In this document: positions 3,163 to 61,390 of the stretch, piece after piece
Layout: every line of letters starts with the position of its first letter
How positions within the stretch are numbered: position 1 is the stretch's first letter
Assembly: GCA_963738165.1 (NCBI GenBank)
Contig: CAVTVE010000005.1
Span: 19,585 to 83,584 of the forward strand
Direction: 5' to 3'
DNA from: an uncultured Acidobacteriota bacterium
Lineage (GTDB): Bacteria > Acidobacteriota > Terriglobia > Terriglobales > Acidobacteriaceae
Length of the DNA: 64,000 nt
Notes under the pieces: model-generated
Seen by the model: only the letters and a program-made list of their open reading frames with translations
The model's database searches: none
What the model was told of the DNA's origin: nothing
Translations under genes and position numbers: made by a program

Positions 3163-3204
3163 AGAACGGCATCCAAACCGACGTTTAGATTTGTAAAAGG
3201 AAGT

Positions 3205-9230: not shown

Positions 9231-11216
9231 GTGCGCCGTGAAAAGGCGCTGGACTTCAGCGGGTGCAACTCCCGCCCGGGAACTGGTTCGCTCCACCCGG
9301 TAGCAACCGAAACGATAGTGGAGGTAACGAAGCTGTCGGAGCTTTCGGTGTAGAGGGTCGCTTGGCGACTCGGCGAGCGTGCAGGCCGTAACGAGGATAA
9401 ACGCTGAGCAGGCCTCGAAAGAACAATTGCAGGAGCCGACCTGACGTTATCACAGGGAAGGCCGCTGACGATGGAGAAGCACGAGCGAACGCGCTCCATC
9501 GGACCTGCCGGGGTATTGGCGACGGCATGTACGCATAGGAGACCAGACGCAACACGGGAAGCCCCAGCGGTGATCGCAGTGTGGATCAACCGGCAACTCG
9601 CGAGAGACAGGCCGGGCCGTTTGGGGTGGCGGAGAGGCTCGTAGTACCGATGAAGCCGGGTAATGCTGGTGGAGGGAAGGGGCCTCAGTCAAAGACGAAT
9701 GCAACAAGCAACAAAGGACCGAGGGATTGGCGATGAGCCTAACAACTCCACCAGGTGTTCAGAAGTTGCAGATGGCATTACACGCAAAAGCTAAGGAATC
9801 GCCCGACTTTCGTTTCTTTGCGCTGTACGACAAGGTGTATCGGAAAGACGTTCTGGCATACGCCTACGAGCGCTGCAAAGCCAATGGCGGAGCAGCGGGA
9901 GTAGACGACCAGACGTTCGAGAACATCGAGCAGTACGGCGTGGAACGATGGCTGGACGAACTGACGCAAGTGCTGAAAAGCCGAACCTATCAACCGCAGC
10001 CCGTACGGCGGGTTTACATACCCAAGCCGGACGGGAAGCAGAGACCGTTAGGAATACCGACAATCCGTGATCGGGTTGTGCAGACGGCAGCGGTGCTGGT
10101 CCTCGAACCAATCTTCGAGGCCGACCTGCAACCGGAACAATATGCCTATCGGGCGAACCGCAGCGCACTGGACGCCGTCAAGCACGTCCATAAGCTGATC
10201 AACTCCGGTCATGAAGAAATCGTTGATGCTGATCTCAGCAGCTACTTTGATAGCGTTCCACATGCCGAGCTTATGAAGTCGGTGGCTCGCCGGGTTGTCG
10301 ACGGAGCCATGCTGCATCTGATCAAGATGTGGCTGGAAGCTCCGGTCGAGGAAACCGACGATCGTGGCAACAAGCGTCGGAGTACGCGCAATCGGGACGA
10401 AGGTCGAGGCACTCCGCAAGGGGCTCCGATCAGTCCACTGCTCAGCAATTTATACATGCGCCGGTTCGTGCTCGGGTGGAAGAAACTGGGGCACGAGGAG
10501 CGTTGGAGAGCGTACATCGTCAACTATGCCGATGACCTCGTGATCTGCTGTCGAAGCGGAGCGGAACAAGCTCTGACGACGATGCGGGAGATGATGTCGA
10601 AGCTGAAGCTGACGGTGAATGAAACGAAGACGCGGGTCTGCTATCTGCCGGAAGAGCGGTTCGACTTTCTGGGATACACGTTTGGTCGTTGCTACTCGAT
10701 GAGGAGGGGCCGAGTCTTTCTAGGCACGGTACCATCCAAGAAGCGGGTGCAACGCCTCTGTCGCGCGATCAGCGAGGAGACCAGACTCAACACAGTCTGG
10801 CAAGACTCGACGATCATGGTGGCGAAGCTCAACCGGATGCTTGTCGGATGGGCTAACTACTTCTGTCTCGGTCCAGTCAGCAATGCCTACAGTGTGGTCG
10901 ATACACACGCTCGCACGAGGCTGCGTCGGTGGCTATGCGATAAACACAAAGAGCCGCTTCCGGGATACAAACGCTTCCCGGAAGCATCGCTCAATGCTGT
11001 GTTCGGCTTGGTTAATCTACCGAGGCGAACCGCGACCCTTCCGGGGGCGAAAGCGTGAGTCTTTTCCGAGAGCCGGATGCGGGAGATCCGCCTGTCCGGT
11101 TCGATGAGCGGGAACAGGAAACAGAGCCAAGTCAAACCGGACTGAGGCGACGCGGCGAAAGCCAACTCAACTAGCCACCGGGAGACTACCGCCACTGCGC
11201 CTGTTCTCGACTCTAC
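9231..11216 (+). mobile_element. Group II intron, second family (1,986 bp)
   Basis: The 5' end is GTGCGCCGTG at 9231. Canonical domain V at 11070-11102: GAGCCGGAU-GCGG-GAGA-UCCGC-CU-GUCCGGUUC (AGC triad). Domain VI basal helix GAG-CGG-GAACAGG (11106-11118) pairs with CCUGUUC-UCG-A-CUC (11200-11213), with bulged A at 11210. The 3' end ...CTCGACTCTAC is at 11216. The element is intergenic, 32 nt upstream of the divergent start codon at 9198. Confidence 0.85.
9727..11058 (+). CDS. Group II intron reverse transcriptase/maturase (no endonuclease domain)
   Basis: RT blocks YRANRSALDAV, VDADLSSYFDSVPH, GTPQGAPISPLLSNLYM, NYADDLVICC. Maturase region is MLVGWANYFCLGPVS. ATG 9733 is a possible alternative start. 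Confidence 0.9.
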   Translation: MAMSLTTPPGVQKLQMALHAKAKESPDFRFFALYDKVYRKDVLAYAYERCKANGGAAGVDDQTFENIEQYGVERWLDELTQVLKSRTYQPQPVRRVYIPKPDGKQRPLGIPTIRDRVVQTAAVLVLEPIFEADLQPEQYAYRANRSALDAVKHVHKLINSGHEEIVDADLSSYFDSVPHAELMKSVARRVVDGAMLHLIKMWLEAPVEETDDRGNKRRSTRNRDEGRGTPQGAPISPLLSNLYMRRFVLGWKKLGHEERWRAYIVNYADDLVICCRSGAEQALTTMREMMSKLKLTVNETKTRVCYLPEERFDFLGYTFGRCYSMRRGRVFLGTVPSKKRVQRLCRAISEETRLNTVWQDSTIMVAKLNRMLVGWANYFCLGPVSNAYSVVDTHARTRLRRWLCDKHKEPLPGYKRFPEASLNAVFGLVNLPRRTATLPGAKA

Positions 11217-15402: not shown

Positions 15403-17003
15403 GTTGCGCAAACGACCGAGACTGTTGAAAAACTCGGCTCGAAATCTGAAGTTTTGTGTTGGCGGTAAACCTCCTGTGTGTTAAGCAGAGATGCAGGAGG
15501 AACGCAACCGATGATGGGTCAACAGCCGCGCACAGAGTCGCTGTTCTACTACTTCCGATTGGAAGACCAGATCCCGGAAAATCATCTGCTACGGCTCATT
15601 GATCGACATGTTGATCTGAGCTTCGTGCGTGAGCGCGTGAAGAAGTTCTATAGTTCGACCGGCCGTCCTTCGATCGATCCTGAAGTGCTATTGCGCTTGC
15701 TGTTAGTGGGTTATCTCTACGGTATTACCAGCGAGCGGCGATTGTTGGAAGAAGTCCGCATGCATCTTGCCTATCGATGGTTCACGCGGCTCGATCTGAA
15801 TCAGGAAGTTCCGGACCACTCCACGTTTTCCAAGAACCGGCACGGGCGCTTTCGTCAGTCGGGCGTGTTTCGCGAGGTATTCGAAGAAATCGTGCAACGA
15901 TGTTTGGCGGCAGGCTTGGTGGATGGGAAGAACCTGGCGGTAGATGGGACGCTCGTGGCGGCTGACGCCAGCCGAACAAGCCGTATTCCACGCGAGCAGT
16001 TGCAGGAAGCGGCTAAAGTTTCCAGGACAGTAAAAGAGTATTTGAGCGATTTGGAAAAAGAGAACCCGGTATCTCACCAGGAACTTGTGTCCGCCACTGA
16101 CCCGGATGCGGTTCTGGCTACCAAGGGCGGGGCCGCGGCAATGGCTTACTACGACAACTATCTTATCGACACGGCGAGTCGGGTGATTTTGGAAGTGGAA
16201 GCCACGCCGGCACTATTTCATCAGGAAGCAGTGGCGGCGCGCAGAATGGTGGAACGGGTTCAGAAGCTCGGGGTTCGCGTGGAGAGTTTGGGAGCGGACA
16301 AGGCATACGGAAGCGGCGAGTTTCTGGCTTGGCTGTTGGAGCGGGGAGTGCAACCGCATATTCCTGTCATTGATCGTCGACATCAGACCGATGGCTGTTT
16401 CACGCACGACCAATTTCGATATGCTCCGGCTGAAGATGTCTATTATTGTCCCCAAGGCAAGGCTTTGCGTTATCGAGGTCTGAAACGTGATAGTCAGGCG
16501 TACGCGTACAGCGCAACCGAGACGCAGTGCAAAGGATGTTCTCAAAAGAAATTGTGCACCCCAGGTCTGTTCCGCATGCTTTTCATAAGCTGGCACGAAC
16601 CAGCTCGGCAGGCAGTACGGGACCTGAGAGGAACGCCCGCCTATGAGCGTTCTCGGCGAGCGCGCTACAGGATCGAGGCTCTGTTTGCAGAACTCAAGCA
16701 ACGCATGCGCCTGTCACGAGTACGACTCCGCCGTCTATGGAATGTTGGCGAGCAGTTCTTGATGGCGGCTACTGCTCAAAACATAAAACGCTTGGTGCGA
16801 TTCCTGGCACAAAGCCCACCGACGAACCAAGCCCAGGTCGGATGACCAGCGATGGGCCCCAGAAACGGAAGCAGCAGAACGGTAATAGTAGATAACTGAA
16901 ACAGGACCTCAGTAGACCAGACCTCACCGCAGTGAAAAGCCCGCATCGGCCCCCGACCCACATGCTTCAGGAGTTTTTCAACAGTCTCGATCGTTTGTGC
17001 AAC
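15403..17003 (+). mobile_element. IS1182/IS5-like insertion sequence (about 1.6 kb)
   Basis: 33-bp terminal inverted repeats GTTGCGCAAACGACCGAGACTGTTGAAAAACTC (15403-15435) and GAGTTTTTCAACAGTCTCGATCGTTTGTGCAAC (16971-17003) match 31/33. They enclose one transposase ORF. No clear target duplication was seen. Confidence 0.8.
15478..16845 (+). CDS. IS1182/IS5-family DDE transposase
   Basis: 455 aa. N-terminal LFYYFRLEDQIPENHLLRLID and RPSIDPEVLLRLLLVGYLYGITSERRLLEEV; AVDGTLVAADAS; DNYLID; C-terminal RYRIEALFAELKQRMRLSRVRLRRL. Typical of the IS5/IS1182 group. Confidence 0.88.
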   Translation: MLSRDAGGTQPMMGQQPRTESLFYYFRLEDQIPENHLLRLIDRHVDLSFVRERVKKFYSSTGRPSIDPEVLLRLLLVGYLYGITSERRLLEEVRMHLAYRWFTRLDLNQEVPDHSTFSKNRHGRFRQSGVFREVFEEIVQRCLAAGLVDGKNLAVDGTLVAADASRTSRIPREQLQEAAKVSRTVKEYLSDLEKENPVSHQELVSATDPDAVLATKGGAAAMAYYDNYLIDTASRVILEVEATPALFHQEAVAARRMVERVQKLGVRVESLGADKAYGSGEFLAWLLERGVQPHIPVIDRRHQTDGCFTHDQFRYAPAEDVYYCPQGKALRYRGLKRDSQAYAYSATETQCKGCSQKKLCTPGLFRMLFISWHEPARQAVRDLRGTPAYERSRRARYRIEALFAELKQRMRLSRVRLRRLWNVGEQFLMAATAQNIKRLVRFLAQSPPTNQAQVG

Positions 17004-17173
17004 AGATCGGCTGCTGGTGATTTTCGGGGGTTTTTGCATTGCAAAAAGGTATTGCATTAGTGAATCGATTGGCGACAGCTTTGTGCAATGGCAATGCTGA
17101 TTGGATACGCACGAGTTTGGCTCCTTCCTGCTTAGAAGAAAGACGCACTATCAGCGTTCGTCGGTCGTGTATC

Positions 17174-17211
17174 CCACCGGCATTTCAACACAAGTGTGGA
17201 AATGCCGGTGG
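17174..17211. repeat. 13-bp perfect-stem hairpin related to the inner part of the TIR motif
   Basis: CCACCGGCATTTC-(12 nt)-GAAATGCCGGTGG, preceded by GTGTATCCC (compare ..AGTATCCCGTTTCGGGCATT). A copy of the CTGCTTAGAA...GCACTAT motif lies just upstream at 17128-17157. Confidence 0.55.
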
Positions 17212-17534
17212 AGAACCTTTGGGTAGATGATAGTGGTCCGGTGTTCATGCGGTGTTCTCCACTCTGCACCGAATGCTGTGCGACTCGTGAAGCCTCACCA
17301 ATCTGCACATTTATTTCACCTCGAGTGTCCTCTCACCCTTTGACCGCAGAAGCAGGATGGGATGCATTCTCCTGCACTGATGTTTGGACTCCCCCGCCGA
17401 TACGACCGCAGCTCAGACGAGATCTCAGCCGACGCCGCTCCCACAATCTTCCCATGCCTAAAGTACAGTCCTAAGCCCGCGCGCTCTGCTCGGACCCTCT
17501 GCTTAGAAACAGAAGAAGCACTATCGCAGAGACA

Positions 17535-17738
17535 TCACTGGCGTGCCCGAATGACGGTTCGCTCCGCTCCGCAATATCTGCACACCTTGGCTTCAGGAAG
17601 AATCAACTCAGCGCAACGATCGCAGGGCACACGAGGCCTTTCGTCACGGGGTGTTGTAGCATTGCTGCCTCGCCAACGGATAAGAATAACTATTCCAAAC
17701 GTGACAGCCAACAACATCAGAAAAGGCAGAAACTCCAT
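17535..17738 (-). CDS. Hypothetical small membrane protein with C-terminal zinc ribbon
   Basis: 67 aa. TM helix FLPFLMLLAVTFGIVILI, then CDRC...CRYC. Confidence 0.45.
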   Translation of the reverse strand: MEFLPFLMLLAVTFGIVILIRWRGSNATTPRDERPRVPCDRCAELILPEAKVCRYCGAERTVIRARQ

Positions 17739-17896
17739 ACGCCTCCTTAATTCTGAGCAGCAAATGATTCGTGTGGCGATCGTGCAGCCACCAGCGTCCT
17801 TTGGCGGAAGCTGTTCATCGGTTTTGCTTTTTGCTCATACTTTATGCCGCTTTCAGCGCCACGTACACGGGTACATGCAGAAAACAGGTCTCCCGC

Positions 17897-17923
17897 CTCA
17901 CGATCTCACCTCGAGATAGTGAG
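17897..17923. repeat. Palindromic copy of the repeat family
   Basis: CTCACGATCTC-ACCTC-GAGATAGTGAG (one mismatch in the 11-bp stem). Confidence 0.55.
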
Positions 17924-17945
17924 ACCCTTGGTAGACTATCTAACC

Positions 17946-18257
17946 CTATTTGCCGTGTTCCGGCCTTTCGAATCGTAAATGAGCACTTGTAAGTGACTCC
18001 CGAGGGAAGTCAATTCCTGCCTGTTCAAGAGCTGTTACGTCTGCTGCTGAAAGCCGGGGCGGCTCGTATTCTCCCCAATATTCGTAGACTCCAGGAGCAT
18101 TCTGGACATCGAACAAAGCAGTCCTTTTGTAGCTGACGGCAAGCGATTCACCCGGCTTGATGGTTTTCCAATCCTCTGTCCGGCGGTGCTTGAACTCCCC
18201 GGCCGGGTTTTGCTTATTGGGCCGAAAAGTCCGGTTTGACATAAGCGTAAAGTCCAT
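17946..18257 (-). CDS. Hypothetical protein
   Basis: C-terminal 103 codons of ORF 17946-18566, from internal ATG MDFTLMSN. The longer ORF would overlap the topoisomerase start. No family recognised. Confidence 0.35.
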   Translation of the reverse strand: MDFTLMSNRTFRPNKQNPAGEFKHRRTEDWKTIKPGESLAVSYKRTALFDVQNAPGVYEYWGEYEPPRLSAADVTALEQAGIDFPRESLTSAHLRFERPEHGK

Positions 18258-18395
18258 CCCGCACCCGAGTGCTGCTGAAGAAACAATCCAGGAATAGTAC
18301 CAAGCACGAATTCTCAAACCCTCCTGATGTGTAGGTAGCGGCCCATTTCTGGCGCGGCCCCGTTCAATCGGAAGCAGAAGCATTACTATGGAATT

Positions 18396-20810
18396 ATGGC
18401 GGATCTGGAATCCGGTACCATCGCCGTGCTGGCGGAAAAACCTTCGGTGGCACGTGATATCGCCCGGGAGCTGGGTGCGACCAGCCGCGGCGACGGATAC
18501 CTGCACGGCAACCGCTACGTTGTGACGTGGGCCGTGGGGCATCTGGTAAGCCTTGCCCAGCCGCACGAAATCAATCCTGAATGGCGCCGCTGGCAGCGCG
18601 CCCTACTCCCTATGTTGCCCAGCCAGTGGCCACTTGTAGTCTACGAAAAAACTAAGGATCAATTCGAGATCGTAAAGCGAATCCTAAACTCCCCGAAGGT
18701 TTCGCGCGTCGTTTGTGCGACGGATGCCGGCCGCGAAGGGGAATTGATCTTCCGTTATATTTACGAGTCAGTACAGTGTCGAAAGCCGTTTAGCCGCCTA
18801 TGGATTTCTTCGCTCACGCCCGAAGCCATCCGCAAAGGGTTCGCAGCCCTGCGGCCGGGAACTGACTACGACTCGCTAGCGGATGCGGCGCGAGGCCGCA
18901 GCCAGGCAGATTGGCTGGTAGGCATGAACCTATCGCGCGCCTATTCTCTTGCCGACAACGAAAAGCTTTCGGTGGGGCGCGTTCAGACGCCCACGCTGGC
19001 GATGGTGGTCGAGCGTGAACTTGCCATTCGCCAATTCGCGCCCGAAGAGTACCTAGAAATCGTGGCCGATTTTCGCCCAAGTGACCGGTGTCCCACGGGA
19101 GACGCTCAGCAGAATCTCTACCGGGGTACGTGGTTCCGCGCGAAGGTTGGAGAGGGGGCCGACAAAGAATCGCGGCAGAAGGCGATGCGGCTGCCCACGG
19201 ATGGAGAAGAAGCGAAGAAGATTATCGAGCGCGCGCGTGCAGGTCAGGCCGCCATCGAATCAATTCAATCGGAAACGCAGCGCATGGCTCCACCGCTGTT
19301 TTACGATCTAACTGAACTGCAGCGTCATGCCAACCGCCTCTATGGCTTCAGCGCGCAAAAAACGCTGGATGTCGCGCAGGCTCTGTATGAAAGCTACAAG
19401 CTCATCAGCTATCCGCGCACGGACAGCCGACACCTCTCCCAGGATGTAGCGCCCACGCTGCTGGGAATCGTCAAGAACATCCAAGGTCCTTATCGGGAGC
19501 ATCTGGCGCCGGGCCCGGGCGAGCGGGCCTTGGGACGGCGGTTCATTGACGACTCCAAGGTGACCGATCACCACGCCATCATTCCCACCGCAACGTCTGC
19601 AGGGAAGAGTCGCCTGTCGGACGACGAACGTAAGATCTACGATCTGATCTGCCGGCGCCTGCTCAGCGCCTGGCAGGACGACCACATCTGGTCGGTTACA
19701 ACCGTGATCACCGCGATTACAAACAGCGACATCGTCGACCGCTATCATGCATCTGGAACCGCTGTGCAGCAGGCCGGTTGGAAGGTGCTGGACATCGCCG
19801 TCGAGAAGAAGGCGAAGCGGGGGCAGGGAAGCGGCGAGGACGAGCGGGAGGAACAGGTCTTGCCGCCGGGTTTGGCCAAGAGCCAGCCGCAGGAGGTGAT
19901 CGACGTTGAAGCCTTGAAAAAGAAGACCCGGGCACCCAAGCGGTACACCGAAGGAACGCTGCTCACGGCCATGGAAACAGCTGGGAAGACTCTTGACGAG
20001 GAAGAACTAGCGAATGCCATGAAGGAAACCGGTCTGGGGACGCCTGCGACTCGGGCGTCCATCATCGAGGTTCTACTCAACCGTGATTACATTGTGCGGC
20101 GAGGAAAGACACTCGAAGCCACGGACAAGGGCATCCGGCTTATCGAGGTGGTTCACCCTGAGGTGAAGAGCCCCGCTATGACCGGTCAGTGGGAAGCATA
20201 TCTCAAGAGGATCCAGCGCGGGGAGGCTCAATTGGGGCTATTCCTGAAAGGCATTGAAGATTACGTGACGGCAGTGGTGGGCAAGGTTGGTCAGGTGCCG
20301 CCTGCCGGGAAGGTACCGGCGCAAGTTGTGGCTCCATCGACAGAGGTTGTGGTTCCAAATCCACGAAGCGTTCACTGCACTCTGGACACGTCCACTGGCG
20401 AGCCGTTGCCAATAGGCGACCTGAATAGTCTCCTGCACAAAGCTTTCGGTTTTTCCTCTTTCCGGTCGAACCAGGAAGCCGTCTGCCGGGCGGCCATCGA
20501 AGGTCGGGACGTGTTGCTGGTGATGCCTACAGGGTCGGGCAAGTCGCTATGCTATCAATTGCCGGGCATCGCGCGCGGCGGTACGACGCTGGTGATCAGC
20601 CCGTTGATTGCCTTAATGGAGGATCAGGTAGCGAAGCTCAAGGCGCAAGGCTTTGCCGTTGACCGCATTCACTCGGGCCGTCCGCGCGCTGAGTCGCGGC
20701 AGGCTTGGTCGATTACCTCAGTGGCAAGACGCAGTTCCTTTTCATTGCGCCGGAGCGGTTGCGGGTGGCCGGTTTCCCGGAGATGTTGGCCAAACGACTG
20801 CCATCCCTGA
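18396..20810 (+). CDS. DNA topoisomerase III (type IA) fused in frame to the N-terminal part of a RecQ helicase; reading frame lost near 20700
   Basis: Topoisomerase part: TOPRIM IAVLAEKPSVARDIARELG and VVCATDAGREGELIFRYIY; active-site Tyr region LISYPRTDSRHLS; GTPATRASIIEVLLNRDYI. From nt 20421, with no intervening stop, come RecQ motifs: LLHKAFGFSSFRSNQ (motif 0), VMPTGSGKSLCYQLP (Walker A), TLVISPLIALMEDQV (Ia). The last ~35 codons (WSITSVARRSSF...) are out-of-frame read-through. Confidence 0.85.
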   Translation: MADLESGTIAVLAEKPSVARDIARELGATSRGDGYLHGNRYVVTWAVGHLVSLAQPHEINPEWRRWQRALLPMLPSQWPLVVYEKTKDQFEIVKRILNSPKVSRVVCATDAGREGELIFRYIYESVQCRKPFSRLWISSLTPEAIRKGFAALRPGTDYDSLADAARGRSQADWLVGMNLSRAYSLADNEKLSVGRVQTPTLAMVVERELAIRQFAPEEYLEIVADFRPSDRCPTGDAQQNLYRGTWFRAKVGEGADKESRQKAMRLPTDGEEAKKIIERARAGQAAIESIQSETQRMAPPLFYDLTELQRHANRLYGFSAQKTLDVAQALYESYKLISYPRTDSRHLSQDVAPTLLGIVKNIQGPYREHLAPGPGERALGRRFIDDSKVTDHHAIIPTATSAGKSRLSDDERKIYDLICRRLLSAWQDDHIWSVTTVITAITNSDIVDRYHASGTAVQQAGWKVLDIAVEKKAKRGQGSGEDEREEQVLPPGLAKSQPQEVIDVEALKKKTRAPKRYTEGTLLTAMETAGKTLDEEELANAMKETGLGTPATRASIIEVLLNRDYIVRRGKTLEATDKGIRLIEVVHPEVKSPAMTGQWEAYLKRIQRGEAQLGLFLKGIEDYVTAVVGKVGQVPPAGKVPAQVVAPSTEVVVPNPRSVHCTLDTSTGEPLPIGDLNSLLHKAFGFSSFRSNQEAVCRAAIEGRDVLLVMPTGSGKSLCYQLPGIARGGTTLVISPLIALMEDQVAKLKAQGFAVDRIHSGRPRAESRQAWSITSVARRSSFSLRRSGCGWPVSRRCWPNDCHP

Positions 20811-22471
20811 TTGCCATTGACGAGGCGCACTGCATCTCGCAATGGGGGCACGATTTCCGGCCGGATTACCGCATGCTGGGTCAGTACCTGCCCCGCTTTC
20901 GTCCGGCGCCGGTCATAGCGCTGACTGCTACTGCAACGCCAGTTGTTCAAAATGACATCGTCGAGCAGTTGGGGCTGGCGCAGACAAACCGCTTCGTTCA
21001 TGGCTTTCGCCGCGCCAACATTGCAATTGAGGTTGTCGAAATCGCGCCTTCCCAGCGGGCTGAGCTCGCCGGCGAACTGTTGCAAGAGGCGAAACGTAGG
21101 CCGGCAATCGTCTACACACCCACGCGAAAGCACGCTGAAAGTCTTGCCGCTGAACTTGCCATCCACTTTGCTGCCGCTGCCTATCACGCTGGGATCGATG
21201 CCGGACGCCGCCAGCAAGTTCAAGAAGAATTTCAAAAAGGTCGGATACAGGTGATGGTGGCAACGATTGCCTTTGGCATGGGAATCGATAAGGCTGACGT
21301 CCGTACCGTGATCCACACTGCTTTGCCGGGAAGCCTCGAAGCGTACTACCAGGAAATCGGACGCGCCGGACGTGACGGTGCGCCCAGCCGCGCGATCCTG
21401 ATGCACTCCTATGCCGATCGCTACACCCACAAATTCTTCTACGAGCGCGACTATCCAGACGTGACTGTGCTGGAGGCGATCTTTACCCAGCTCCGGGCCG
21501 AGCCAAATGAAAAGGCGTCCTTAATCAGCAAGCTCCGGATGGATGAAGAGGTGTTCGACAAGGCCCTTGAAAAGCTCTGGATCCATGGCGGCGCCGTGGT
21601 GGACTCCGCCGAGAACGCGAGCCGGGGCCACGACCAGTGGCGCGAATCCTATGTCGCCCAGGGTGAGCAGAAGCGGGCACAGATCGAGCAGATGATGCGT
21701 TATGCGGAGAGCAATTTGTGCCGCATGGCCACCCTGGTACGCCACTTCGGCGACATTGCTGACGGAGATAAGCGGTGCGGGATATGCGATTTCTGCGCTC
21801 CCGGTCAGTGCGCCGCGCAGCGGTTCCGTACCGCGACAGAGGCGGAGCACAAGGCGCTCCTACGTGTGGTAGCCATGTTGCGCTCGGGTGGCGCGAAATC
21901 AACCGGCAAGCTGTTCGCAGAACTGTGTCCCAACGCCGAGATGAGCCGCGACGCATTCGAAGAAGTACTCGGCGCCATGGCGCGTGCAGGACTTCTGCAA
22001 CTCTCAGACGAGGCCTTTCAAAAAGATGGGAAACAGATTCCGTACCGTAAGGCCAGTCTTACGCACACCGGGCAGACCGTGGATGAAAAGACGCCGGTCG
22101 CATTCGTCATGAAGGACATTGCGCCCCCACCTGGCAAGCGGAAAAGGAAGAAGACGCCTACTGTCTCTAGTCGGAAGCGGGCATCGAATCCTGAAATAGC
22201 GGCGGGACCGGGGAAATTGGCGAATACGAAGAGGGCTGAAGCTGAGATGGATATCCGCCTCGAAGCGGCGCTGCGCGACTGGCGTCTGGTCGAAGCCCGG
22301 CGGCGTGGCGTGCCAGCGTTTCGGATATTGAGCGACCGCACACTGAGGGCTCTGGCTACCAGCCACCCTGTAAAAACCGAGGACCTACTCTCCGTCCCGG
22401 GAATTGGGTCCAGTACCGTCGCGAAATATGGAACGAATATCTGCCGCGTGCTCCGCGAAAACCGTGGCTAG
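20705..22471 (+). CDS. recQ: RecQ helicase, continuation (motifs II-VI, Zn-binding, RQC, HRDC)
   Basis: VDYLSGKTQFLFIAPERL, then DEAH box LIAIDEAHCISQWGHDFRPDYRML, ALTATAT, VMVATIAFGMGIDKADVRTVIH, YYQEIGRAGRDG. Zn cluster CRMATLVRHFGD...RCGICDFC. C-terminal HRDC is LRDWRLVEARRRGVPAFRILSDRTLRALA. The frame is offset by one nt from the upstream RecQ N-terminus, so as written it lacks Walker A. Confidence 0.85.
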   Translation: MVDYLSGKTQFLFIAPERLRVAGFPEMLAKRLPSLIAIDEAHCISQWGHDFRPDYRMLGQYLPRFRPAPVIALTATATPVVQNDIVEQLGLAQTNRFVHGFRRANIAIEVVEIAPSQRAELAGELLQEAKRRPAIVYTPTRKHAESLAAELAIHFAAAAYHAGIDAGRRQQVQEEFQKGRIQVMVATIAFGMGIDKADVRTVIHTALPGSLEAYYQEIGRAGRDGAPSRAILMHSYADRYTHKFFYERDYPDVTVLEAIFTQLRAEPNEKASLISKLRMDEEVFDKALEKLWIHGGAVVDSAENASRGHDQWRESYVAQGEQKRAQIEQMMRYAESNLCRMATLVRHFGDIADGDKRCGICDFCAPGQCAAQRFRTATEAEHKALLRVVAMLRSGGAKSTGKLFAELCPNAEMSRDAFEEVLGAMARAGLLQLSDEAFQKDGKQIPYRKASLTHTGQTVDEKTPVAFVMKDIAPPPGKRKRKKTPTVSSRKRASNPEIAAGPGKLANTKRAEAEMDIRLEAALRDWRLVEARRRGVPAFRILSDRTLRALATSHPVKTEDLLSVPGIGSSTVAKYGTNICRVLRENRG

Positions 22472-22535
22472 AAGGTGAAACATGGATTCCGCATTAGATG
22501 TAATCACTTGTACAACCTCCAATGGAGACCACCAA

Positions 22536-22772
22536 ATGACCGAACCGAGCTACGAAGAATTGAAAGCACAACTCGCTGCGCTCAAAGCTAAGGAAGCACG
22601 TAGCGGTACCATGAGCTTCAAAGTGTCCGACAAGGGCGGTGTCAGCGTGTACGGCCTTGGCCGCTTCCCGGTCACCTTGTATTACGAGCAGTGGATAAAG
22701 CTTCTGGATAGAGCGCAGGACTTACGCGAGTTTCTTGAGGCGAACAAAGACAAGCTAAAACTGAAGGAGTAG
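22536..22772 (+). CDS. Hypothetical small protein (78 aa)
   Basis: Internal ATG of ORF 22482-22772, preceded by GGAG. Coiled-coil-like N-terminus EELKAQLAALKAKEA, then SFKVSDKGGVSVYGLGRFPVTLYYEQW. No family named with confidence. Confidence 0.55.
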   Translation: MTEPSYEELKAQLAALKAKEARSGTMSFKVSDKGGVSVYGLGRFPVTLYYEQWIKLLDRAQDLREFLEANKDKLKLKE

Positions 22773-22866: not shown

Positions 22867-23181
22867 ATGGCTACTACAACCATGACAAAGACGCAGGTGA
22901 TTCGCCTGCTAGCGGAAAAAAGCGAAATCACAAACAAGCAGGCGGCAACATTTCTGGACAATCTGGCTGAACTAGCCGTGACTCAGGCTAAGAAAACTGG
23001 GGTGTTTGTGGTGCCTGGTCTGGGCCGCCTGAAGAAGGTTCAGCGTGCAGCACGGACTGGTCGCAATCCGCAGACTGGCGAGGCCATCAAGATTAAGGCC
23101 AAGACCACGGCAAAGTTCTATGTTGCAAAAGCGGTGAAGGACGCCATTGCACCCGTGAAAGCAGCAACCGCGAAGAAGTAA
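22867..23181 (+). CDS. HU/IHF-family DNA-binding protein with short Lys/Ala tail
   Basis: VVPGLGRLKKVQRAARTGRNPQTGEAIKIKAKTTAKFYVAKAVKD matches the HU beta-arm signature (R-x-G-R-N-P-x-T-G). Confidence 0.9.
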   Translation: MATTTMTKTQVIRLLAEKSEITNKQAATFLDNLAELAVTQAKKTGVFVVPGLGRLKKVQRAARTGRNPQTGEAIKIKAKTTAKFYVAKAVKDAIAPVKAATAKK

Positions 23182-26471: not shown

Positions 26472-28473
26472 GTCGGGTCGAGGACTGGCGCGGTATTCCG
26501 AAGGTCCAGCCTAGCTTGTTGCTCCCCGTTTCCTCTGGGAGTGCCTCAATAGCCAAACCGTGAATCCGTTTCCAGCCCCCGCCACATCGCACCCAGCGTG
26601 CGGATTTCCCGCACTGGGCGCACCTGTTTGCTTTGTGCCAAGAGTTATGTGGCCTATCGTGCTGGGGCGACTTTCGCACCTGACCATCGACGGAGCTGGT
26701 AGTTGTTAAACAGACCCAGCCGACCGTATAGCCATTCGCTACTCCATCGCGTCCAGCCGAAACCTTTGCGGCCCCGGGCTCGCATCAAATGCCGCCGTAC
26801 CTTCTCCTCTACCCAGCGTTTGACCACCCCAAAACAAATACTCGAATGGCCGACCCGAAAGTAGTTCACCCAACCGCGCAGAACCGGATTGATTTTCGCA
26901 ATCACAGTCTCGACGGGCCAGCTGACGTGCTGCCGGAAGATCTCCCTGAGCTTTTCAAACAGCGCTGTCCGCTTCTTCAGCTTGGGCACATAGTTTGGTC
27001 GCCATTTCCGCTGAAGGCTCAGTACACGCCGATATTCAAAGCCCAGAAAAGTGAAGCTCTCTCCCTTCTTCAGATCCACCATCCGACTCTTGTCCTCGTT
27101 GATCTCAACGCGGAGCTTCGCGAACTCCTCGCGCAGCCGTTTGTCTATCGCCTCCACCAGCCAGTCATTCCGCCGTTCAGCGTCGATCAAGATCACCATG
27201 TCGTCCGCAAAACGCGCGTACTGGACTTTGGTTGACTTGCCCCTTCGCGTGATATCCACCGCCTTCTCCAGCATCCGGTCTACCTCATTCAGATAGAGGT
27301 TACTGAGCAAAGGTGAAATCACACCGCCTTGGGGAACGCCTTTCTTTCCGGTCGCCTTCAGAATCATCTTGAGTAAATGCATGACCGCATCATCATGGAC
27401 CCGCCGAGCCACTTTCTCTAACAACAGAGAGTGCTGCACGTTATCGAAATAGGAGGCTAAATCCAAATCAATGATGCGCGTCTTCTCTTCGACGATCGCT
27501 CTGGCTACCCGGGCTACGGCTTCATGCGCCGTCCGCTTCGGTCGATATCCAAACGACCCTGTTTGGAAGTCAGCTTCGAAGATCGGCTCCAGGATGAGCT
27601 TTAACGCCCCCTGGACCACTCGATCACGGATTGCAGGAATCGAAAGGACGCGGACTTTCTTTCCCCCGTCCTTTGGAATCTCCTTCTTCCGTGCCGGCAT
27701 GGGCCGATACGTGTTGGTAACTAATTCATCCCGAATCTGCACGAGAAAACTCTCCGCTCCGCTTTCCTCGATGGCTTCAAACGTGACCCCGTCAATGCCC
27801 GGAGCCCCGTCATTACGGCTCGCCATCTGGTAGGCTTCCCACAAAGTCTCCATCTTGCAGACATGGACGTATAGTCCCCAGAAACGCCAAGACGGTTCTG
27901 CCTTCGCCTTGACATATAGACTCCTTCTCAGGTCCTGCAAACTGATGGGCGTTTTTGTCATCTCACCCTTGCCTCCCGTTTTGTTAGAGCCATCACAAAC
28001 AGCAGGGCCTCTTCGCTCCACGGGAATTACTCCGCTTCCTCGCTACTACAGACCCAGCCGAATCCCTCTCGCCGTCCGCCGACTTCCCGGTGTCACCGGT
28101 TATACGGCTTCCCTGCTCCGCCGATTTCTCAACGGGGCGAGGAGGGTTTCTCCAGTTGCTTAGCATGACCTTGTCACCGTGCTGTCCCTACCAACCCCGC
28201 CGAAGTGTTTCGCCGCATCAGTCCTTGCGACGCACCATGCTGCCTTCGCCCGAAAAGTGAGGGCTCGGCCTTCGGATTTCAGTACTTTCGAGGCCATATG
28301 GGTTCACTTGCGTTACGGCCCGGCAACTCGCTCGCCATCCTTTTCAGAAGGCTTTGTCAATAGGCTTCAGGATTTTCAGTTTCCTTCCTTCCTGCTATTC
28401 AAGCTACAGGGCTTGGACTCTTACCCCGGTGGGACTTTCACCCACTGTTCATGCCAGCCTTCGCTGGACGCAC
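26472..28473 (-). mobile_element. Group II intron, copy B (identical to copy A, inverted)
   Basis: All ORF-track translations inside it are letter-identical to those in 3205-5206. Offsets from the RT ORF to both ends are identical (452 nt and 182 nt). The flanks differ from copy A beyond GAAGT|GTGCG and ...CCCGAC|. Confidence 0.85.
26654..28021 (-). CDS. Group II intron reverse transcriptase/maturase
   Basis: The 455-aa translation is identical to ORF 3657-5024. Confidence 0.9.
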   Translation of the reverse strand: MERRGPAVCDGSNKTGGKGEMTKTPISLQDLRRSLYVKAKAEPSWRFWGLYVHVCKMETLWEAYQMASRNDGAPGIDGVTFEAIEESGAESFLVQIRDELVTNTYRPMPARKKEIPKDGGKKVRVLSIPAIRDRVVQGALKLILEPIFEADFQTGSFGYRPKRTAHEAVARVARAIVEEKTRIIDLDLASYFDNVQHSLLLEKVARRVHDDAVMHLLKMILKATGKKGVPQGGVISPLLSNLYLNEVDRMLEKAVDITRRGKSTKVQYARFADDMVILIDAERRNDWLVEAIDKRLREEFAKLRVEINEDKSRMVDLKKGESFTFLGFEYRRVLSLQRKWRPNYVPKLKKRTALFEKLREIFRQHVSWPVETVIAKINPVLRGWVNYFRVGHSSICFGVVKRWVEEKVRRHLMRARGRKGFGWTRWSSEWLYGRLGLFNNYQLRRWSGAKVAPAR

Positions 28474-28730
28474 ACTTCACGTTACTGATACTCGCGAAGG
28501 CGTCCGTAGACCGCCGCGCAGACCACGGACAACTTTCCTCGCGGCATCCAAAACGGTATCTCTCTGGCTAAGTCGAGCCAAGTGAATAGCACGAGAGAGC
28601 AGATTACACCACACACGAATTCTTAAAGCGGGATGAAGGAGATGTTAGACAGCCGCATGGCGAATCTTCACCCCTCAGGCAGGATGCTTACTCGCGAGGA
28701 GTCGAAACGCCCCCATTTTGAGGAGTGATC

Positions 28731-30398
28731 ATGGAAGTGAGTCCTAATGCAGGAAAGCCAGCCGAGTTGTCGATGCTGGTGAACGTACCCAGACTCGTCA
28801 CGGCTTACTACACGGAAATGCCTGACCCTTCTCTGCCGGAACAACGAGTTGCTTTCGGCACCTCAGGACATCGTGGTTCCGCATTCAGAAGGGCTTTCAA
28901 CGAATGGCATATCCTGGCTATTAGTCAGTCCATTTGCATGTACCGGAAACAGAAGAAGATTGATGGCCCGCTGTTTCTCGGCATGGACACGCATGCCCTT
29001 TCCGTACCGGCTCTTGCCAGCGCGCTAGAGGTGCTGGCGGCAAATGGAGTAGACGTCATGTTGGCAGAGGAGGGTGAATACACTCCTACTCCTGTCGTTT
29101 CGCACGCCATTCTCACGTACAACCGCGGACGAAAAACAGGTCTCGCCGACGGCATCGTCATCACGCCATCCCACAATCCGCCACATGATGGTGGGTTCAA
29201 ATACAATCCACCAAATGGTGGGCCGGCGGAAACCGACGTCACCGCTTGGATCGAGGCCAAGGCAAATGAGTTTCTCGAGAACGGTCTTCACAGTGTCAAA
29301 CGGATTCCTTACGAAAAAGCTCTTCGCGCAACTACAACCCATATGCACGACTATCGCAATGCTTACATTGCTGATCTCGCCAATGTGATTGATATAGATG
29401 TCCTGCGGGAGACGAAGATCAGCATGGGAGTCGATCCGCTTGGCGGTGCCGGGATCCACTACTGGGGACCAATTGCCGACCGCTACGGGCTAAACCTCAC
29501 CGTCGTGAACGAGGACGTCGACCCGACGTTTCGCTTTATGAGCGTAGATTGGGACGGTCAGATCCGCATGGACCCATCCTCACCTTATGCAATGCAGAGC
29601 TTGATCCGCCTGAAGGATAGCTTCGAGATCGCATTTGCCTGCGATACTGACCACGACCGCCATGGGATTGTCACCAAGAGCACAGGGCTGCTCCCGCCCA
29701 ATCACTACCTTTCGGTAGCCATCTTCTTTCTCTTCCAACACAGGCCAAGATGGGGTGAGACGGCGGCAGTGGGCAAGACGGTAGTGAGCAGCCAGATGAT
29801 TGATCGCGTCACTGCGAAGCTTGGCCGGAAGCTTTACGAGGTGCCGGTTGGTTTCAAGTGGTTCGTCGATGGCCTACTGGACGGCTCGCTTGGCTTCGGT
29901 GGCGAAGAGAGCGCGGGTGCCTCGTTCGTTCGCATGGATGGAAGTGTGTGGACGACGGGCAAAGACGGAATGGTCCCGGCTTTGCTCGCAGCAGAGATCA
30001 CGGCGCGCATGGGCCGCGATCCCGGCGAGATCTACCGCGAACTCACGCGCGAGTTTGGCGAGCCCATTTATGACCGGGTTGAGGCGCCAGCTACGCCAGA
30101 ACAAAAACAGATATTAGAGAGACTCTCGCCGCAGCAGGTCCGGTCCACAGATCTGGCCGGGGAAAAGATCAAGGCGATCCTTACCCGTGCACCAGGCAAC
30201 GATGCGCCCATCGGCGGGTTGAAAGTAATGACCGAGAGCGGTTGGTTCGCGGCGCGTCCGTCTGGGACTGAGGACATCTACAAGATCTATGCGGAGAGCT
30301 TCCAGGGACCGGATCATCTGCATCGCATCCTGGAGGAAGCACAAGCGATCGTCGGAGATACTCTGGCTGTGTCGACTACTACGGAGAAATCATCATGA
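28731..30398 (+). CDS. pgm: Phosphoglucomutase (alpha-D-glucose phosphate-specific)
   Basis: FGTSGHRGS and the active-site loop VITPSHNPPHDGGFKYNPPNGGPA. Length and overall pattern resemble E. coli-type Pgm. ATG 28731 is preceded by GAGGAG. Confidence 0.9.
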   Translation: MEVSPNAGKPAELSMLVNVPRLVTAYYTEMPDPSLPEQRVAFGTSGHRGSAFRRAFNEWHILAISQSICMYRKQKKIDGPLFLGMDTHALSVPALASALEVLAANGVDVMLAEEGEYTPTPVVSHAILTYNRGRKTGLADGIVITPSHNPPHDGGFKYNPPNGGPAETDVTAWIEAKANEFLENGLHSVKRIPYEKALRATTTHMHDYRNAYIADLANVIDIDVLRETKISMGVDPLGGAGIHYWGPIADRYGLNLTVVNEDVDPTFRFMSVDWDGQIRMDPSSPYAMQSLIRLKDSFEIAFACDTDHDRHGIVTKSTGLLPPNHYLSVAIFFLFQHRPRWGETAAVGKTVVSSQMIDRVTAKLGRKLYEVPVGFKWFVDGLLDGSLGFGGEESAGASFVRMDGSVWTTGKDGMVPALLAAEITARMGRDPGEIYRELTREFGEPIYDRVEAPATPEQKQILERLSPQQVRSTDLAGEKIKAILTRAPGNDAPIGGLKVMTESGWFAARPSGTEDIYKIYAESFQGPDHLHRILEEAQAIVGDTLAVSTTTEKSS

Positions 30399-32941
30399 GC
30401 GAGCCAGTCCGCGTCAGCCACCCGATCTATAACCTCCTGCCTATCGAGATCGAGGGCTTCGATTCGCTGGCAGAACTCGCCTTGGATATGCGCTGGTCAT
30501 GGAATCATGCCACCGACGAAGTATGGCGGCAGCTTGATCCTAGACTGTGGGAGATCACGCAAAATCCTTGGGTCGTCCTCCAGACGGTCTCGCGAGACCA
30601 GATCGAGCACGTGTTGGCCGATCCCGTTTTTCGGAAAACCGTAAATCGTTTGGTGGAAGCCAGCAGGTACGCGGCGGAAGCGCCCGCGTGGTTTCAACAG
30701 AATCATTCGCAGGGCTCGATGACCTGCGCTGCGTATTTCAGCATGGAATTCATGTTGAGCGAAGCTCTGCCTATTTACTCGGGGGGACTCGGCAATGTGG
30801 CTGGCGATCAACTCAAAGCTGCCAGTGATTTGGGTGTGCCGGTCGTAGGCGTGGGGCTGCTTTATCAGCAGGGCTATTTTCGCCAGATGATCGATAGAAA
30901 CGGCGAGCAACAAGCCCTCTATCCATACAACGACCCAGGACAGTTGCCGATCACACCATTGCGCCAACCAAATGGGGAGTGGCTGCGACTGGAGATCGCA
31001 CTGCCTGGATACTCGGTCTGGTTGCGCGCTTGGCAAGTCCAGGTCGGCAGAGTGAAGCTCTACCTGCTAGACAGCAATGACGCTGCGAACTTCCCCGCTC
31101 ATCGAGGGATTACGAGCGAACTCTACGGCGGTGGCCCGGAGTTGCGCCTCAAGCAGGAACTGCTGCTCGGGATCGGCGGATGGAGATTGCTCCGCGCACT
31201 TGGGCTCCTGCCAGAGGTCTGCCACCTCAATGAAGGACATGCGGCATTCGCTGTATTGGAACGTGCCCGCAGCTTCATGGAAGAGACCGGGCAGCCCTTC
31301 AAAGTTGCACTGGCGGTGACACGAGCGGGAAATCTCTTCACAACCCATACGGCGGTGGCCGCTGGTTTTGACCGTTTTGCTCCTGTCCTCATCGAGCAAT
31401 ACCTCGGGTGGTATGCCGAAAAGAAACTCGGCATCTCACTTCAGGATCTGCTGGCCCTGGGGCGCCAGAATCCAGACGACTCGTCGGAAACTTTCAACAT
31501 GGCATATCTGGCGATTCGAGGCAGCGGCGCGGTGAATGGGGTGAGCCGCTTACATGCCCAGGTCAGCCGACACCTCTTTATTCCTCTGTTTCCGCGCTGG
31601 CCAGAGAACGAAGTCCCAGTCGGATATGTGACTAATGGAGTGCACGTGGCCACTTGGGACTCGGCTCCTGCCGACGATCTTTGGACGGGAAGCTGCGGAA
31701 AGGATCGCTGGCTAGGGACAACGGAAAATATGGAACAGGAGGTTCGCCGGATCCCGGATGCCAAGCTTTGGGAGTTTCGTGTCGCCTCCAGCAAGTCTCT
31801 CGTTGAATACGCCCGCGCCCGACTGTCCCGGGATCTAGCGGCGGCGGGCGCAGCGGCTGAGAAAATTGAAGCTGCGAAATATCTCTTTCATCCCAACACC
31901 TTGACACTGGGCTTTGCGCGGCGTTTCGCGACCTATAAGCGACCGAACCTGTTGCTGCAAGACCCGCAACGGCTACTTCGTCTGCTGATCAACCCTGAGC
32001 GTCCGGTGCAACTCATCATTGCCGGCAAGGCGCATCCAGCAGACCAGGCGGGGCAAGCTCTGATTAAGGAATGGATACATTTCATCCGACAGCCGGAGGC
32101 ACGACCGCATGTAATCTTCCTCAGTGACTACGACATGAATTTGACCGAGCACTTGGTACAGGGTGTGGATGTTTGGATCAATACGCCACGTCGGCCGTGG
32201 GAGGCTTGCGGGACTAGTGGGATGAAGGTGCTCGTCAACGGCGGTATCAATCTGTCGGAGCTGGATGGCTGGTGGGCGGAAGCATACACGCCCGCAGTTG
32301 GATGGGCGTTGGGAGATGGCCAGGAACATGGCGCCGATCCCGCCTGGGAGGCTGCCGAAGCAAACGCGCTTTACGACCTGCTCGAGCGCGAGGTGATTCC
32401 GGAGTTCTATACCCGAGACGAGAATGGAGTTCCTGCCGTCTGGGTGGCGCGAATGCGGGAAAGCATGGCGAGGTTGACGCCGCGTTTTTCCGCGAGCCGC
32501 GCGGTATGTGAATACACTGAACAACACTATTCCCTGGCTGCCACCGCATTCCGTGAGCGCGCAGCGAACAACGGCGCTATAGGCCGACAAATAGTCGACT
32601 GGCAGAATGCGATGGATCAGAAGTGGGGCTCGATGCGCTTCGAAAAATTGCGAGTGGAAACCAATGCAGACTACCACGTGTTTGAAGTCGAAATATTCCT
32701 GAACGATCTCGACCCGCGGGCGATGCGAGTTGAGCTTTATGCGGAAGGAATCAATGGCAGTGCTCCCGAACTTCAGGAGATGCGGCGCGTTCGCCAATTG
32801 GACGGCGCGCCAGCCACCTACGTTTACAGCGCTGCTGTGTCTGCGGTCCGCCCAGCAACTGACTATACGGCGCGCGTGATACCTCATTGCGACCACGTTG
32901 CGATCCCGCTTGAATACGCACGAATCCTGTGGCAGCGGTGA
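30395..32941 (+). CDS. glgP: Alpha-glucan phosphorylase (GlgP/maltodextrin phosphorylase family)
   Basis: 848 aa. LALDMRWSWNH N-terminal domain, FSMEFMLSEALPIYSGGLGNVAGD, GTSGMKVLVNGGINLSELDGWW (PLP-Lys region). The start overlaps the pgm stop (ATGA). Confidence 0.9.
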   Translation: MSEPVRVSHPIYNLLPIEIEGFDSLAELALDMRWSWNHATDEVWRQLDPRLWEITQNPWVVLQTVSRDQIEHVLADPVFRKTVNRLVEASRYAAEAPAWFQQNHSQGSMTCAAYFSMEFMLSEALPIYSGGLGNVAGDQLKAASDLGVPVVGVGLLYQQGYFRQMIDRNGEQQALYPYNDPGQLPITPLRQPNGEWLRLEIALPGYSVWLRAWQVQVGRVKLYLLDSNDAANFPAHRGITSELYGGGPELRLKQELLLGIGGWRLLRALGLLPEVCHLNEGHAAFAVLERARSFMEETGQPFKVALAVTRAGNLFTTHTAVAAGFDRFAPVLIEQYLGWYAEKKLGISLQDLLALGRQNPDDSSETFNMAYLAIRGSGAVNGVSRLHAQVSRHLFIPLFPRWPENEVPVGYVTNGVHVATWDSAPADDLWTGSCGKDRWLGTTENMEQEVRRIPDAKLWEFRVASSKSLVEYARARLSRDLAAAGAAAEKIEAAKYLFHPNTLTLGFARRFATYKRPNLLLQDPQRLLRLLINPERPVQLIIAGKAHPADQAGQALIKEWIHFIRQPEARPHVIFLSDYDMNLTEHLVQGVDVWINTPRRPWEACGTSGMKVLVNGGINLSELDGWWAEAYTPAVGWALGDGQEHGADPAWEAAEANALYDLLEREVIPEFYTRDENGVPAVWVARMRESMARLTPRFSASRAVCEYTEQHYSLAATAFRERAANNGAIGRQIVDWQNAMDQKWGSMRFEKLRVETNADYHVFEVEIFLNDLDPRAMRVELYAEGINGSAPELQEMRRVRQLDGAPATYVYSAAVSAVRPATDYTARVIPHCDHVAIPLEYARILWQR

Positions 32942-57634: not shown

Positions 57635-57898
57635 TGAGATCCTCCTGGTCCACTTGCTCGAATTCCAAATGCAAGAGTACTAAGGTCACTGTTACTTAGA
57701 TTCGTGGCAGGCCAGAAAGGTTCGACTCTAGCCAGAACTGAATTTGCTGCGAAATGAGCAGCTTACGTTCGTGGCTGCAATTATTTTCGGGCAAACCCGG
57801 GCCAAACGTTGCTTTCACCGCGATCTGTAACACGGAAAAGTGAGCTGCCCGGATTTCCTCAACCTCGCCCGCTGCCGGGGTTACAATCGGCATTAGCC

Positions 57899-61390
<3,492 letters not shown>

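Follow-up and report, generated by a model that had tools for sequence, protein, structure and literature searches.

We analysed a 64,000-nucleotide stretch of DNA from an uncultured Acidobacteriota bacterium (hereafter the window; contig CAVTVE010000005.1 of the assembly GCA_963738165.1, positions 19,585 to 83,584 of the forward strand), in which a type IA topoisomerase III (Topo III) runs into a RecQ helicase. By its sequence, the gene at this locus belongs to a bacterial family that is large and conserved but has yet to be characterised. In this family a complete N-terminal Topo III is followed, after a variable and apparently flexible linker, by a complete C-terminal RecQ with both helicase lobes, the Zn-binding domain and HRDC. 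According to the list of open reading frames (ORFs), the locus is made of two overlapping ORFs on the forward strand, ORF1 at 18396-20810 (804 aa) and ORF2 at 20705-22471 (588 aa), with a frame offset of 2, i.e. -1. No frame change interrupts the Topo-RecQ junction (20286-20420) in the raw sequence. The RecQ helicase core is non-contiguous in the raw sequence, with motifs 0, I, Ia, II (DEAH) and III-VI divided between the two frames at 20707/20708, and all of the helicase motifs become contiguous once one base is restored, as they are in the intact homologues. A preliminary description, made from the letters of this DNA, had given the coordinates of both ORFs and their motifs, had placed the junction in frame and had located the break within 20693-20708, outside a homopolymer. 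The ORF list, the Pfam matches and the motif positions bear out the coordinates, motifs and junction, and nucleotide alignment bears out the position of the break, with one base absent after 20707. As it had proposed, a single base suffices for the repair, while its length of about 1,359 aa needs a small correction: the repaired product consists of 1358 aa (1359 codons counting the stop).

The features of the locus are listed in Table 1. Along the repaired protein, the GSGKS of the Walker A motif occupies aa 713-717, the DEAH box aa 809-812 and the four cysteines of the Zn cluster aa 1109-1134, and motif positions confine the Pro/Val-rich run of the linker to aa 631-658. The N-terminal half of the DEAD domain is matched in ORF1 (aa 691-766, positions 2-87 of the 167 in the Pfam profile) and its C-terminal half in ORF2 (profile positions 95-164), together with Helicase_C, RecQ_Zn_bind and HRDC. 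Therefore, a single DEAD-box domain is divided between both ORFs.

The two modules and their family

The topoisomerase module is identified as Topo III by several comparisons. ORF1 passes the NCBIfam topB models NF005829 (673.8, cut-off 597) and TIGR01056 (584.7, cut-off 515.75), and none of the topA (Topo I) models is passed, their scores being far under the cut-offs. In a search of the PDB, E. coli Topo III (1d6m, 2o19 and others) is matched over aa 12-620 with an E value of 4e-85, compared to about 1e-25 for Topo I. The segment LISYPRTDSRHL, which contains Tyr339, is aligned to LITYPRSDCRYL of E. coli Topo III with the catalytic tyrosines matched. Residues 493-545 of the E. coli enzyme align with one single-residue gap. 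Within them the region of the decatenation loop, which we take to span approximately residues 502-519, aligns without any deletion and thus appears, from this alignment, to be retained in the window Topo III. The Topo core finishes at about aa 632, and RecQ stands at the place where a C-terminal Zn-ribbon or basic domain would be.

The helicase module is closest to the catalytic core of E. coli RecQ (PDB 1oyw, E value 9e-92), and the NCBIfam model TIGR00614 recQ_fam (219.8) is passed by ORF2 (279.7) as well as by the intact homologue P0003 (395.7). Standalone RecQ proteins from the acidobacterial genera Tunturibacter, Edaphobacter and Granulicella (L015 and L017-L031) are 50-57% identical to it over aa 670-1355. 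They resemble the fused RecQ over its whole length, including an insertion ahead of the Zn-binding motif and the C-terminal region, but a Topo III module is neither fused to them nor encoded within 6 kb upstream. The insertion shared with these standalone proteins therefore predates the fusion or is independent of it. It is helical, follows the helicase core and precedes the Zn-binding motif, at aa ~1010-1095 of the repaired protein (window ~21420-21680).

Table 1. Features of the Topo III-RecQ locus, followed by the mobile elements of the window
Feature	Position	Strand	Remarks
Leader, ~60 nucleotides	18335..18395	+	conserved with homologous loci (blastn); putative promoter-proximal or ribosome-binding-site region
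ORF1	18396..20810	+	whole Topo III, linker, RecQ motifs 0, I and Ia, then 34-aa out-of-frame tail to stop
Toprim domain, aa 11-139	18426..18812	+	Pfam PF01751, E 2e-10; holds AEKPS (Glu14) and TDAGREGE (aa 109-116)
Type IA topoisomerase core (Topoisom_bac), aa 158-613	18867..20234	+	Pfam PF01131, 369 bits
Catalytic Tyr339	19410-19412	+	inside ISYPRTDSRHL, aa 337-347
Variable Pro/Val-rich linker, Topo III core to RecQ, ~aa 631-675	20286..20420	+	least conserved stretch of the family
RecQ N-terminal part, Topo frame	20421..20707	+	motif 0 FGFSSFRSNQ; Walker A MPTGSGKS, Lys716; motif Ia TLVISPLIALMEDQ
Frame break, one base absent	20707..20708	+	third base of the Cys771 codon
Remainder of RecQ, -1 frame	20708..22471	+	Pfam, NCBIfam TIGR00614, PDB 1oyw
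DEAH	20819-20830	+	in the RecQ remainder, followed by motif III
Helicase_C	about 21065-21379	+	arginine-finger motif QEIGRAGRDG
Zn-binding 4-Cys cluster	21719-21796	+	Pfam RecQ_Zn_bind PF16124, E 3.5e-9
Divergent region, then basic linker KRKRKK	between Zn cluster and HRDC	+	in the RecQ remainder
HRDC	about 22259-22450	+	Pfam PF00570, E 1.6e-17, ORF2 aa 519-582
Stop codon of the RecQ frame	22469-22471	+	
ISL3-family transposase	353-1960		
Group II intron	3200-5206	+	reverse transcriptase/maturase ORF 3657-5024; 2007 bp, 100% identical to second copy
Third group II intron	about 9257-11171	+	diverged
IS5/IS1182-like element	about 15403-17003		transposase 15478-16845; 33-bp terminal inverted repeats 15403-15435 and 16971-17003
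Group II intron, second copy	26472-28478	-	reverse transcriptase/maturase ORF 26654-28021; inverted relative to first copy

A search with the repaired protein gave at least 120 hits. At least 118 of these are full-length homologues of about 1350 aa (range 1290-1520 aa), which are 66-89% identical to it with ~100% coverage in most cases and carry all six Pfam domains. Homologues P0001-P0003 reach 89% identity and 100% coverage to the window protein after the one-base repair. ORF1 was also searched exhaustively with HMMER against 1.84 billion cluster representatives, and each module was then compared separately by local phmmer. Topo followed by RecQ was found in 49 of the best 150 clusters formed at 50% identity, with identities down to 38%. 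The gap between the modules varies from ~20 to ~250 aa across the clusters and HRDC is missing in some of them; the helicase motifs, the four cysteines and HRDC are kept in 15 diverse representatives.

In the alignment of the 118 full-length homologues both modules are highly conserved, and variability is confined to two stretches, a basic one ahead of HRDC and the linker (aa 631-675). Conservation of the linker is 0.27 with 29% gaps. Residues 634-665 in the AlphaFold2 (AF2) model of the homologue P0022 have a predicted local distance difference test (pLDDT) score below 50 and show no secondary structure.

The taxonomic spread was examined with one genome per GTDB species, which gave at least 600 candidates. 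Among those listed, matches to the full junction come from Solibacteraceae, Bryobacterales, Bryobacter, Terriglobia and Acidobacteriaceae metagenome-assembled genomes (MAGs), and also from Oligoflexus, Polyangiaceae and 'proteobacterium' MAGs. The fusion thus occurs widely and mainly in Acidobacteriota, to which most of the named sources belong. It is also present in a cultured isolate, Solibacter usitatus Ellin6076, as a protein of 1333 aa (UniRef100_Q01NZ0) annotated as 'ATP-dependent DNA helicase RecQ', and other members of the family are labelled 'DNA topoisomerase 3' by NCBI and JGI. The architecture is therefore visible in public databases, although masked by single-function names, and has apparently gone unstudied.

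Full-text literature searches brought up no account of a natural fusion of Topo III and RecQ, and the phylogenomic reviews of topoisomerases that were consulted discuss reverse gyrase as the sole helicase-Topo IA fusion. This agrees with the preliminary description, whose author knew of no characterised single-chain enzyme of this kind and had raised a chimeric assembly and a dead pseudogene as possible outcomes. Neither of the two holds for the family: the same domain order is widespread among the full-length homologues, many of which come from independent contigs, and intact homologues exist. An assembly chimera at the junction was rejected since the Topo-linker-RecQ order is unbroken in more than 100 such contigs. 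One homologous locus, L012, was considered as a candidate for split topB and recQ genes and was likewise rejected; its RecQ part is without a start codon, and an indel within the linker of a long-read MAG fits better.

The frame break and the state of the window copy

The break was localized by nucleotide alignment with two intact genes, one on a 91-kb JGI metagenome contig (L001) and the other on a 1.5-Mb ENA/NCBI contig (L002). The window is 87-88% identical to these genes at the nucleotide level and differs by four indels, three of them of 3, 21 and 3 nucleotides and the fourth the 1-base gap, which is the only one that is not a multiple of 3. A single base is absent from the window after position 20707: where the homologues read CAG GCT TGT/TGC GTG GAT, the window reads CAG GCT TG- GTC GAT, and the site is outside any homopolymer. 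The Cys771 codon is plain and in frame (TGT or TGC) in all 11 of the homologous genes examined, i.e. in L001, L002 and nine genes from JGI metagenomes. These nine were obtained by a pattern scan which accepted both the intact 28-nucleotide and the broken 27-nucleotide form, and all nine are of the intact form. At 77-88% identity to the window, none of them would come from the same species. Look-ups of the exact ORF1, HU and AccA proteins gave no match. Of all the sequences found, only the window has the broken form.

This deletion is the sole lesion of the window copy. The ratio of nonsynonymous to synonymous substitution rates (dN/dS, Nei-Gojobori) is 0.143 upstream of the break and 0.139 downstream in comparison to L001, and 0.185 and 0.187, respectively, in comparison to L002. 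The window protein has no deviation at 417 invariant or near-invariant columns of the family (249 upstream and 168 downstream of the break), at which other members deviate about twice on average. Both modules are under purifying selection and, given the equal ratios and the absence of deviations, no pseudogene decay is visible. Since the window copy is without signs of decay, the deletion would either have arisen in the assembly or be a mutation of very recent date, and we hold the two to be about equally probable.

An artefact of assembly or sequencing, with the organism encoding the intact 1358-aa protein, has in our estimate an even chance of being the correct explanation. The undecayed state of the gene on both sides of the break is consistent with it, as is the presence of only this frame-disrupting indel within 4 kb. 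Copies of the same gene in long-read MAGs (L004, L010, L013 and L038) change frame several times, the linker of L012 is likely frame-switched, and P0022 and P0012 have frameshifted tails; in the window itself, two 100%-identical 2-kb repeats are resolved, which suggests a long-read assembly. However, the context of the break is not homopolymeric, and the other long ORFs scanned in the window that have a Pfam match are all unbroken and give near-full-length domains (dnaE, 1193 aa; phosphorylase, 848 aa; sulfatase, 785 aa; PepF, 648 aa; PGM, 557 aa), which indicates a low indel rate of the assembly. No split gene was detected by Pfam among five adjacent same-strand ORF pairs either, four of the five being without a usable match.

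The same quality of the assembly in the rest of the window speaks for a real and very recent deletion, to which we assign somewhat less than an even chance. The locus would then be a fresh pseudogene, or a truncated gene for Topo III only, in a region under invasion by mobile elements. It lies between identical inverted group II introns, and the fusion gene starts 1.4 kb downstream of the end of the IS5-like element; these nearby elements indicate active mobility and possibly relaxed selection, and the 27-nucleotide form was found in the window only. On the other side, there is neither a second lesion nor an excess of nonsynonymous changes downstream of the break, so that the event would have to be extremely recent, and the comparison sequences are all from species other than that of the window. 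If the deletion is real, an 804-aa Topo III with a dead RecQ stub would be made and RecQ activity would be lost, the 3' ORF being without motifs 0, I and Ia.

Joining of the two ORFs by programmed -1 ribosomal frameshifting or by transcriptional slippage was considered too. The RecQ frame would be regained by a -1 shift at TGG (20706-20708), but neither a slippery heptamer of the type X XXY YYZ nor a homopolymer is present at 20697-20712, and the shift is not conserved, in view of the plain in-frame cysteine codon of all 11 homologous genes. This explanation was therefore rejected, and we regard it as extremely improbable. Whatever the origin of the break, it seems very probable to us that the window locus belongs to the fused Topo III-RecQ family and carries a one-base lesion. 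Indel errors in the fusion gene are common in public assemblies, as seen in the five MAG loci named above (L012 included) and in the C-terminal tails of P0022 and P0012.

Genomic neighbourhood

The window locus has a chromosomal context, with dnaE (57809-61390) and accA present in the window. Other genes encode agmatine deiminase, an N-carbamoylputrescine amidase-type protein, PepF, a sulfatase, PGM and glycogen phosphorylase. The two identical inverted introns, which are 21 kb apart, bracket the Topo-RecQ locus and could mediate inversion of the segment between them. The insertion sequence (IS) element and the group II introns around the fusion gene look like local invasions.

Between the IS5-like element and the fusion gene (17003-18335) no convincing ORF was found, and the 1.5-kb upstream gap gave no match in Rfam. 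A stretch of this gap (17173-17361) is 83% identical over 192 bp to L001 17012-17201, which is intergenic and at a different position there; the window stretch holds a short palindrome (17174-17211), has no Rfam match and could be a small repeat element. Downstream, an ORF of 96 aa (22482-22772) starts 11 nucleotides past the RecQ stop behind a strong AAGGTG Shine-Dalgarno sequence, and is followed by a gene for an HU-type DNA-binding protein (22867-23181). The 96-aa ORF matches no Pfam or PADLOC family, and neither it nor the HU gene is conserved beside the homologues.

Similarity to L001 and L002 in blastn begins at 18334/18335 and stops at the stop codon, with non-syntenic flanks, so that the closest homologues (87% nucleotide identity) share only the gene and its leader of ~60 nucleotides with the window. 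The sole conserved neighbour that was found is a divergent gidB/rsmG, which adjoins the fusion gene in L083 (7304-7948) and L084 (6414-7055). The fusion copies of these two loci are 69% identical to the window protein, their gidB/rsmG genes are 81% identical to each other, and gidB was not found in the window. Other homologues adjoin ribosomal protein S4 or glycogen-metabolism genes. Genes of glycogen or glucose metabolism lie near the fusion in three lineages, namely PGM and glycogen phosphorylase in the window (28725-32941), GH15 glucodextranase, G6PD and 6PGL in L002 (4726-9710), and debranching enzyme, glycosyltransferase and GH57 in the Oligoflexus locus L011 (16-4409). This could represent an ancestral neighbourhood or a coincidence.

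Such surroundings bear on the suggestion of the preliminary description that the locus is cargo of a decayed integrative element, which finds no support: the two homologues of 69% identity adjoin gidB/rsmG in ordinary chromosomal surroundings, and the window with dnaE and accA is itself chromosomal. More generally, the fusion could be cargo of a mobile or defence island, e.g. as the DpdF-type helicase of the 7-deazaguanine Dpd system, instead of a housekeeping enzyme of genome maintenance. The PADLOC profile PDLC02865, named 'DpdF' (1499 positions), matches the homologue P0003 with 1713 bits, Topo part included, and spans the whole Topo+RecQ architecture. Close relatives at 87% nucleotide identity are without flanking synteny, an integrase, an IS3 element and a SIR2-NB-ARC gene lie upstream in L001, and a resolvase and a Mu-type transposase downstream in L002. 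However, the NCBIfam DpdF equivalog NF041063 scores only 202.4 against a cut-off of 550. None of the Pfam families characteristic of dpdA (TGT), dpdB (DndB) and dpdC, nor QueC, QueD or QueE, is present among the scanned ORFs of the window, and these Dpd and Que families are equally absent among the examined neighbours in the seven homologous loci L001, L002, L083, L084, L011, L014 and L016. No dpd or preQ0 genes are thus found nearby, in contrast to what is expected of DpdF in a Dpd system. Moreover, gidB, ribosomal protein S4 and glycogen-metabolism genes are among the neighbours, and the distribution tracks taxonomy, being mostly acidobacterial and including the cultured S. usitatus. We therefore regard a role as mobile or defence cargo as very unlikely. 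The name 'DpdF' of PDLC02865 probably reflects the way in which the profile set was assembled. This name may cause fusion proteins to be mislabelled as defence components.

Proposed mechanism and comparison with known systems

A mechanism can be proposed for the fused enzyme. The RecQ motor (3'-5', ATP-driven) would unwind or branch-migrate DNA and thereby expose single strands where forks converge, at hemicatenanes or at migrating double Holliday junctions. Topo III, held close by its tether, would cut the exposed strand via Tyr339 and pass a strand through its gate, and as an outcome double Holliday junctions, hemicatenanes and late replication intermediates would be unlinked. The covalent tether would stand in for protein-protein recruitment and would keep Topo III at a raised local concentration near the helicase. 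By analogy with the known pairs of these enzymes, a coupled RecQ-Topo III decatenase/dissolvase mechanism seems moderately probable.

We argue for a flexible 'beads on a string' tether over a rigid, latch-coupled mechanism like that of reverse gyrase, because the linker is long and apparently disordered (low conservation and pLDDT below 50) and because the domain order is reversed. A more specific proposal is that of a natural single-chain 'dissolvasome', in which RecQ would feed single-stranded DNA directly to Topo III in cis. Such an enzyme would need neither SSB nor an Rmi1-like adaptor for processive, ATP-driven decatenation or dissolution of double Holliday junctions, and in many Acidobacteria it would be the main source of RecQ/Topo III activity; this proposal may be wrong as easily as right. 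That the tether yields an ATP-dependent topological activity unseen with the separate proteins seems improbable.

Several observations weigh against a coupled and canonical RecQ-Topo III enzyme at this locus. The window gene as given is broken, and coupling in cis is deduced from the fusion itself. The helicase scores 490.9 with the RecQ equivalog TIGR01389, below the cut-off of 640.2, and the insertion ahead of the Zn motif amounts to ~65 aa relative to E. coli RecQ. The preliminary description had assigned the DEAH box, the remaining helicase motifs, the Zn cluster, RQC and HRDC to ORF2; Pfam recovers the C-terminal half of DEAD, Helicase_C, the Zn cluster and HRDC, but RQC (winged-helix) has no Pfam match at E <= 0.01 in either ORF. 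The RQC region gives no sequence alignment to E. coli RecQ, and the low-confidence model of a homologue stops short of it. On account of the score below the equivalog cut-off, the insertion and the lack of a Pfam RQC match, the RecQ moiety may differ functionally from the canonical RecQ. The AF2 model of P0022 (1151 aa, from an alignment of 60 sequences) is poor, with a pLDDT of 61.6 and a predicted template modelling score (pTM) of 0.33, and therefore nothing about the arrangement of the domains was concluded from it. In addition, the Polyangiaceae MAG19 encodes a standalone RecQ besides the fusion (L030 and L016), so that the fusion is not always the sole RecQ.

The RecQ-Topo III partnership and the RTR dissolvasome are established and are cited in topoisomerase reviews. 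What is new is a covalent version of this partnership, already present in the databases yet unstudied. Studies of how DNA passes from the helicase to the topoisomerase still rely on multi-protein complexes, and the fusion offers a minimal system of one polypeptide in which decatenation and dissolution could be approached by structural and single-molecule methods. As a conserved natural fusion it is also independent 'Rosetta-stone' evidence for an ancient and direct partnership of RecQ and Topo III. Members of the family abound in soil Acidobacteria, whose DNA-repair biology is little known.

In comparison to RecQ and Topo III (TopB) of E. coli, both modules of the family are of the bacterial type, with the Zn cluster and HRDC present, but they reside in a single polypeptide with a linker of 40 aa (20-250 aa elsewhere in the family), and the RecQ part departs from that of E. 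coli by its ~65-aa insertion, the absence of a Pfam RQC match and the score below the equivalog cut-off. The strand-passage partnership of the two E. coli proteins was reportedly described by Harmon et al. in 1999 and by Suski & Marians in 2008. Unlinking of the kind proposed here is performed by the separate E. coli RecQ and Topo III (with SSB) and by the eukaryotic BLM/Sgs1-Top3-Rmi1. In the latter complex (RTR/BTR, with Top3 or Top3alpha), likewise, a RecQ-family helicase is physically coupled to a type IA enzyme of the Topo III type, and the reaction expected of the fusion would be the same, i.e. dissolution of hemicatenanes and double Holliday junctions. However, its coupling is non-covalent and involves the N-terminal region of the helicase and the OB-fold subunit Rmi1, whereas in the fusion the helicase is C-terminal to the topoisomerase and no Rmi1-like partner is evident.

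Reverse gyrase is, to our knowledge, the only well-studied covalent fusion of a superfamily 2 helicase-like module to a type IA topoisomerase. Its model TIGR01054 is matched by the Topo part only, with a score of 107 against a cut-off of 471.7, and its helicase module is not a RecQ with Zn and HRDC domains. The hosts of the fusion are not reported hyperthermophiles, and its linker looks flexible rather than latch-coupled. The helicase of reverse gyrase is N-terminal and that of the Topo III-RecQ family follows the topoisomerase, so that the domain order of the one is the mirror image of the other.

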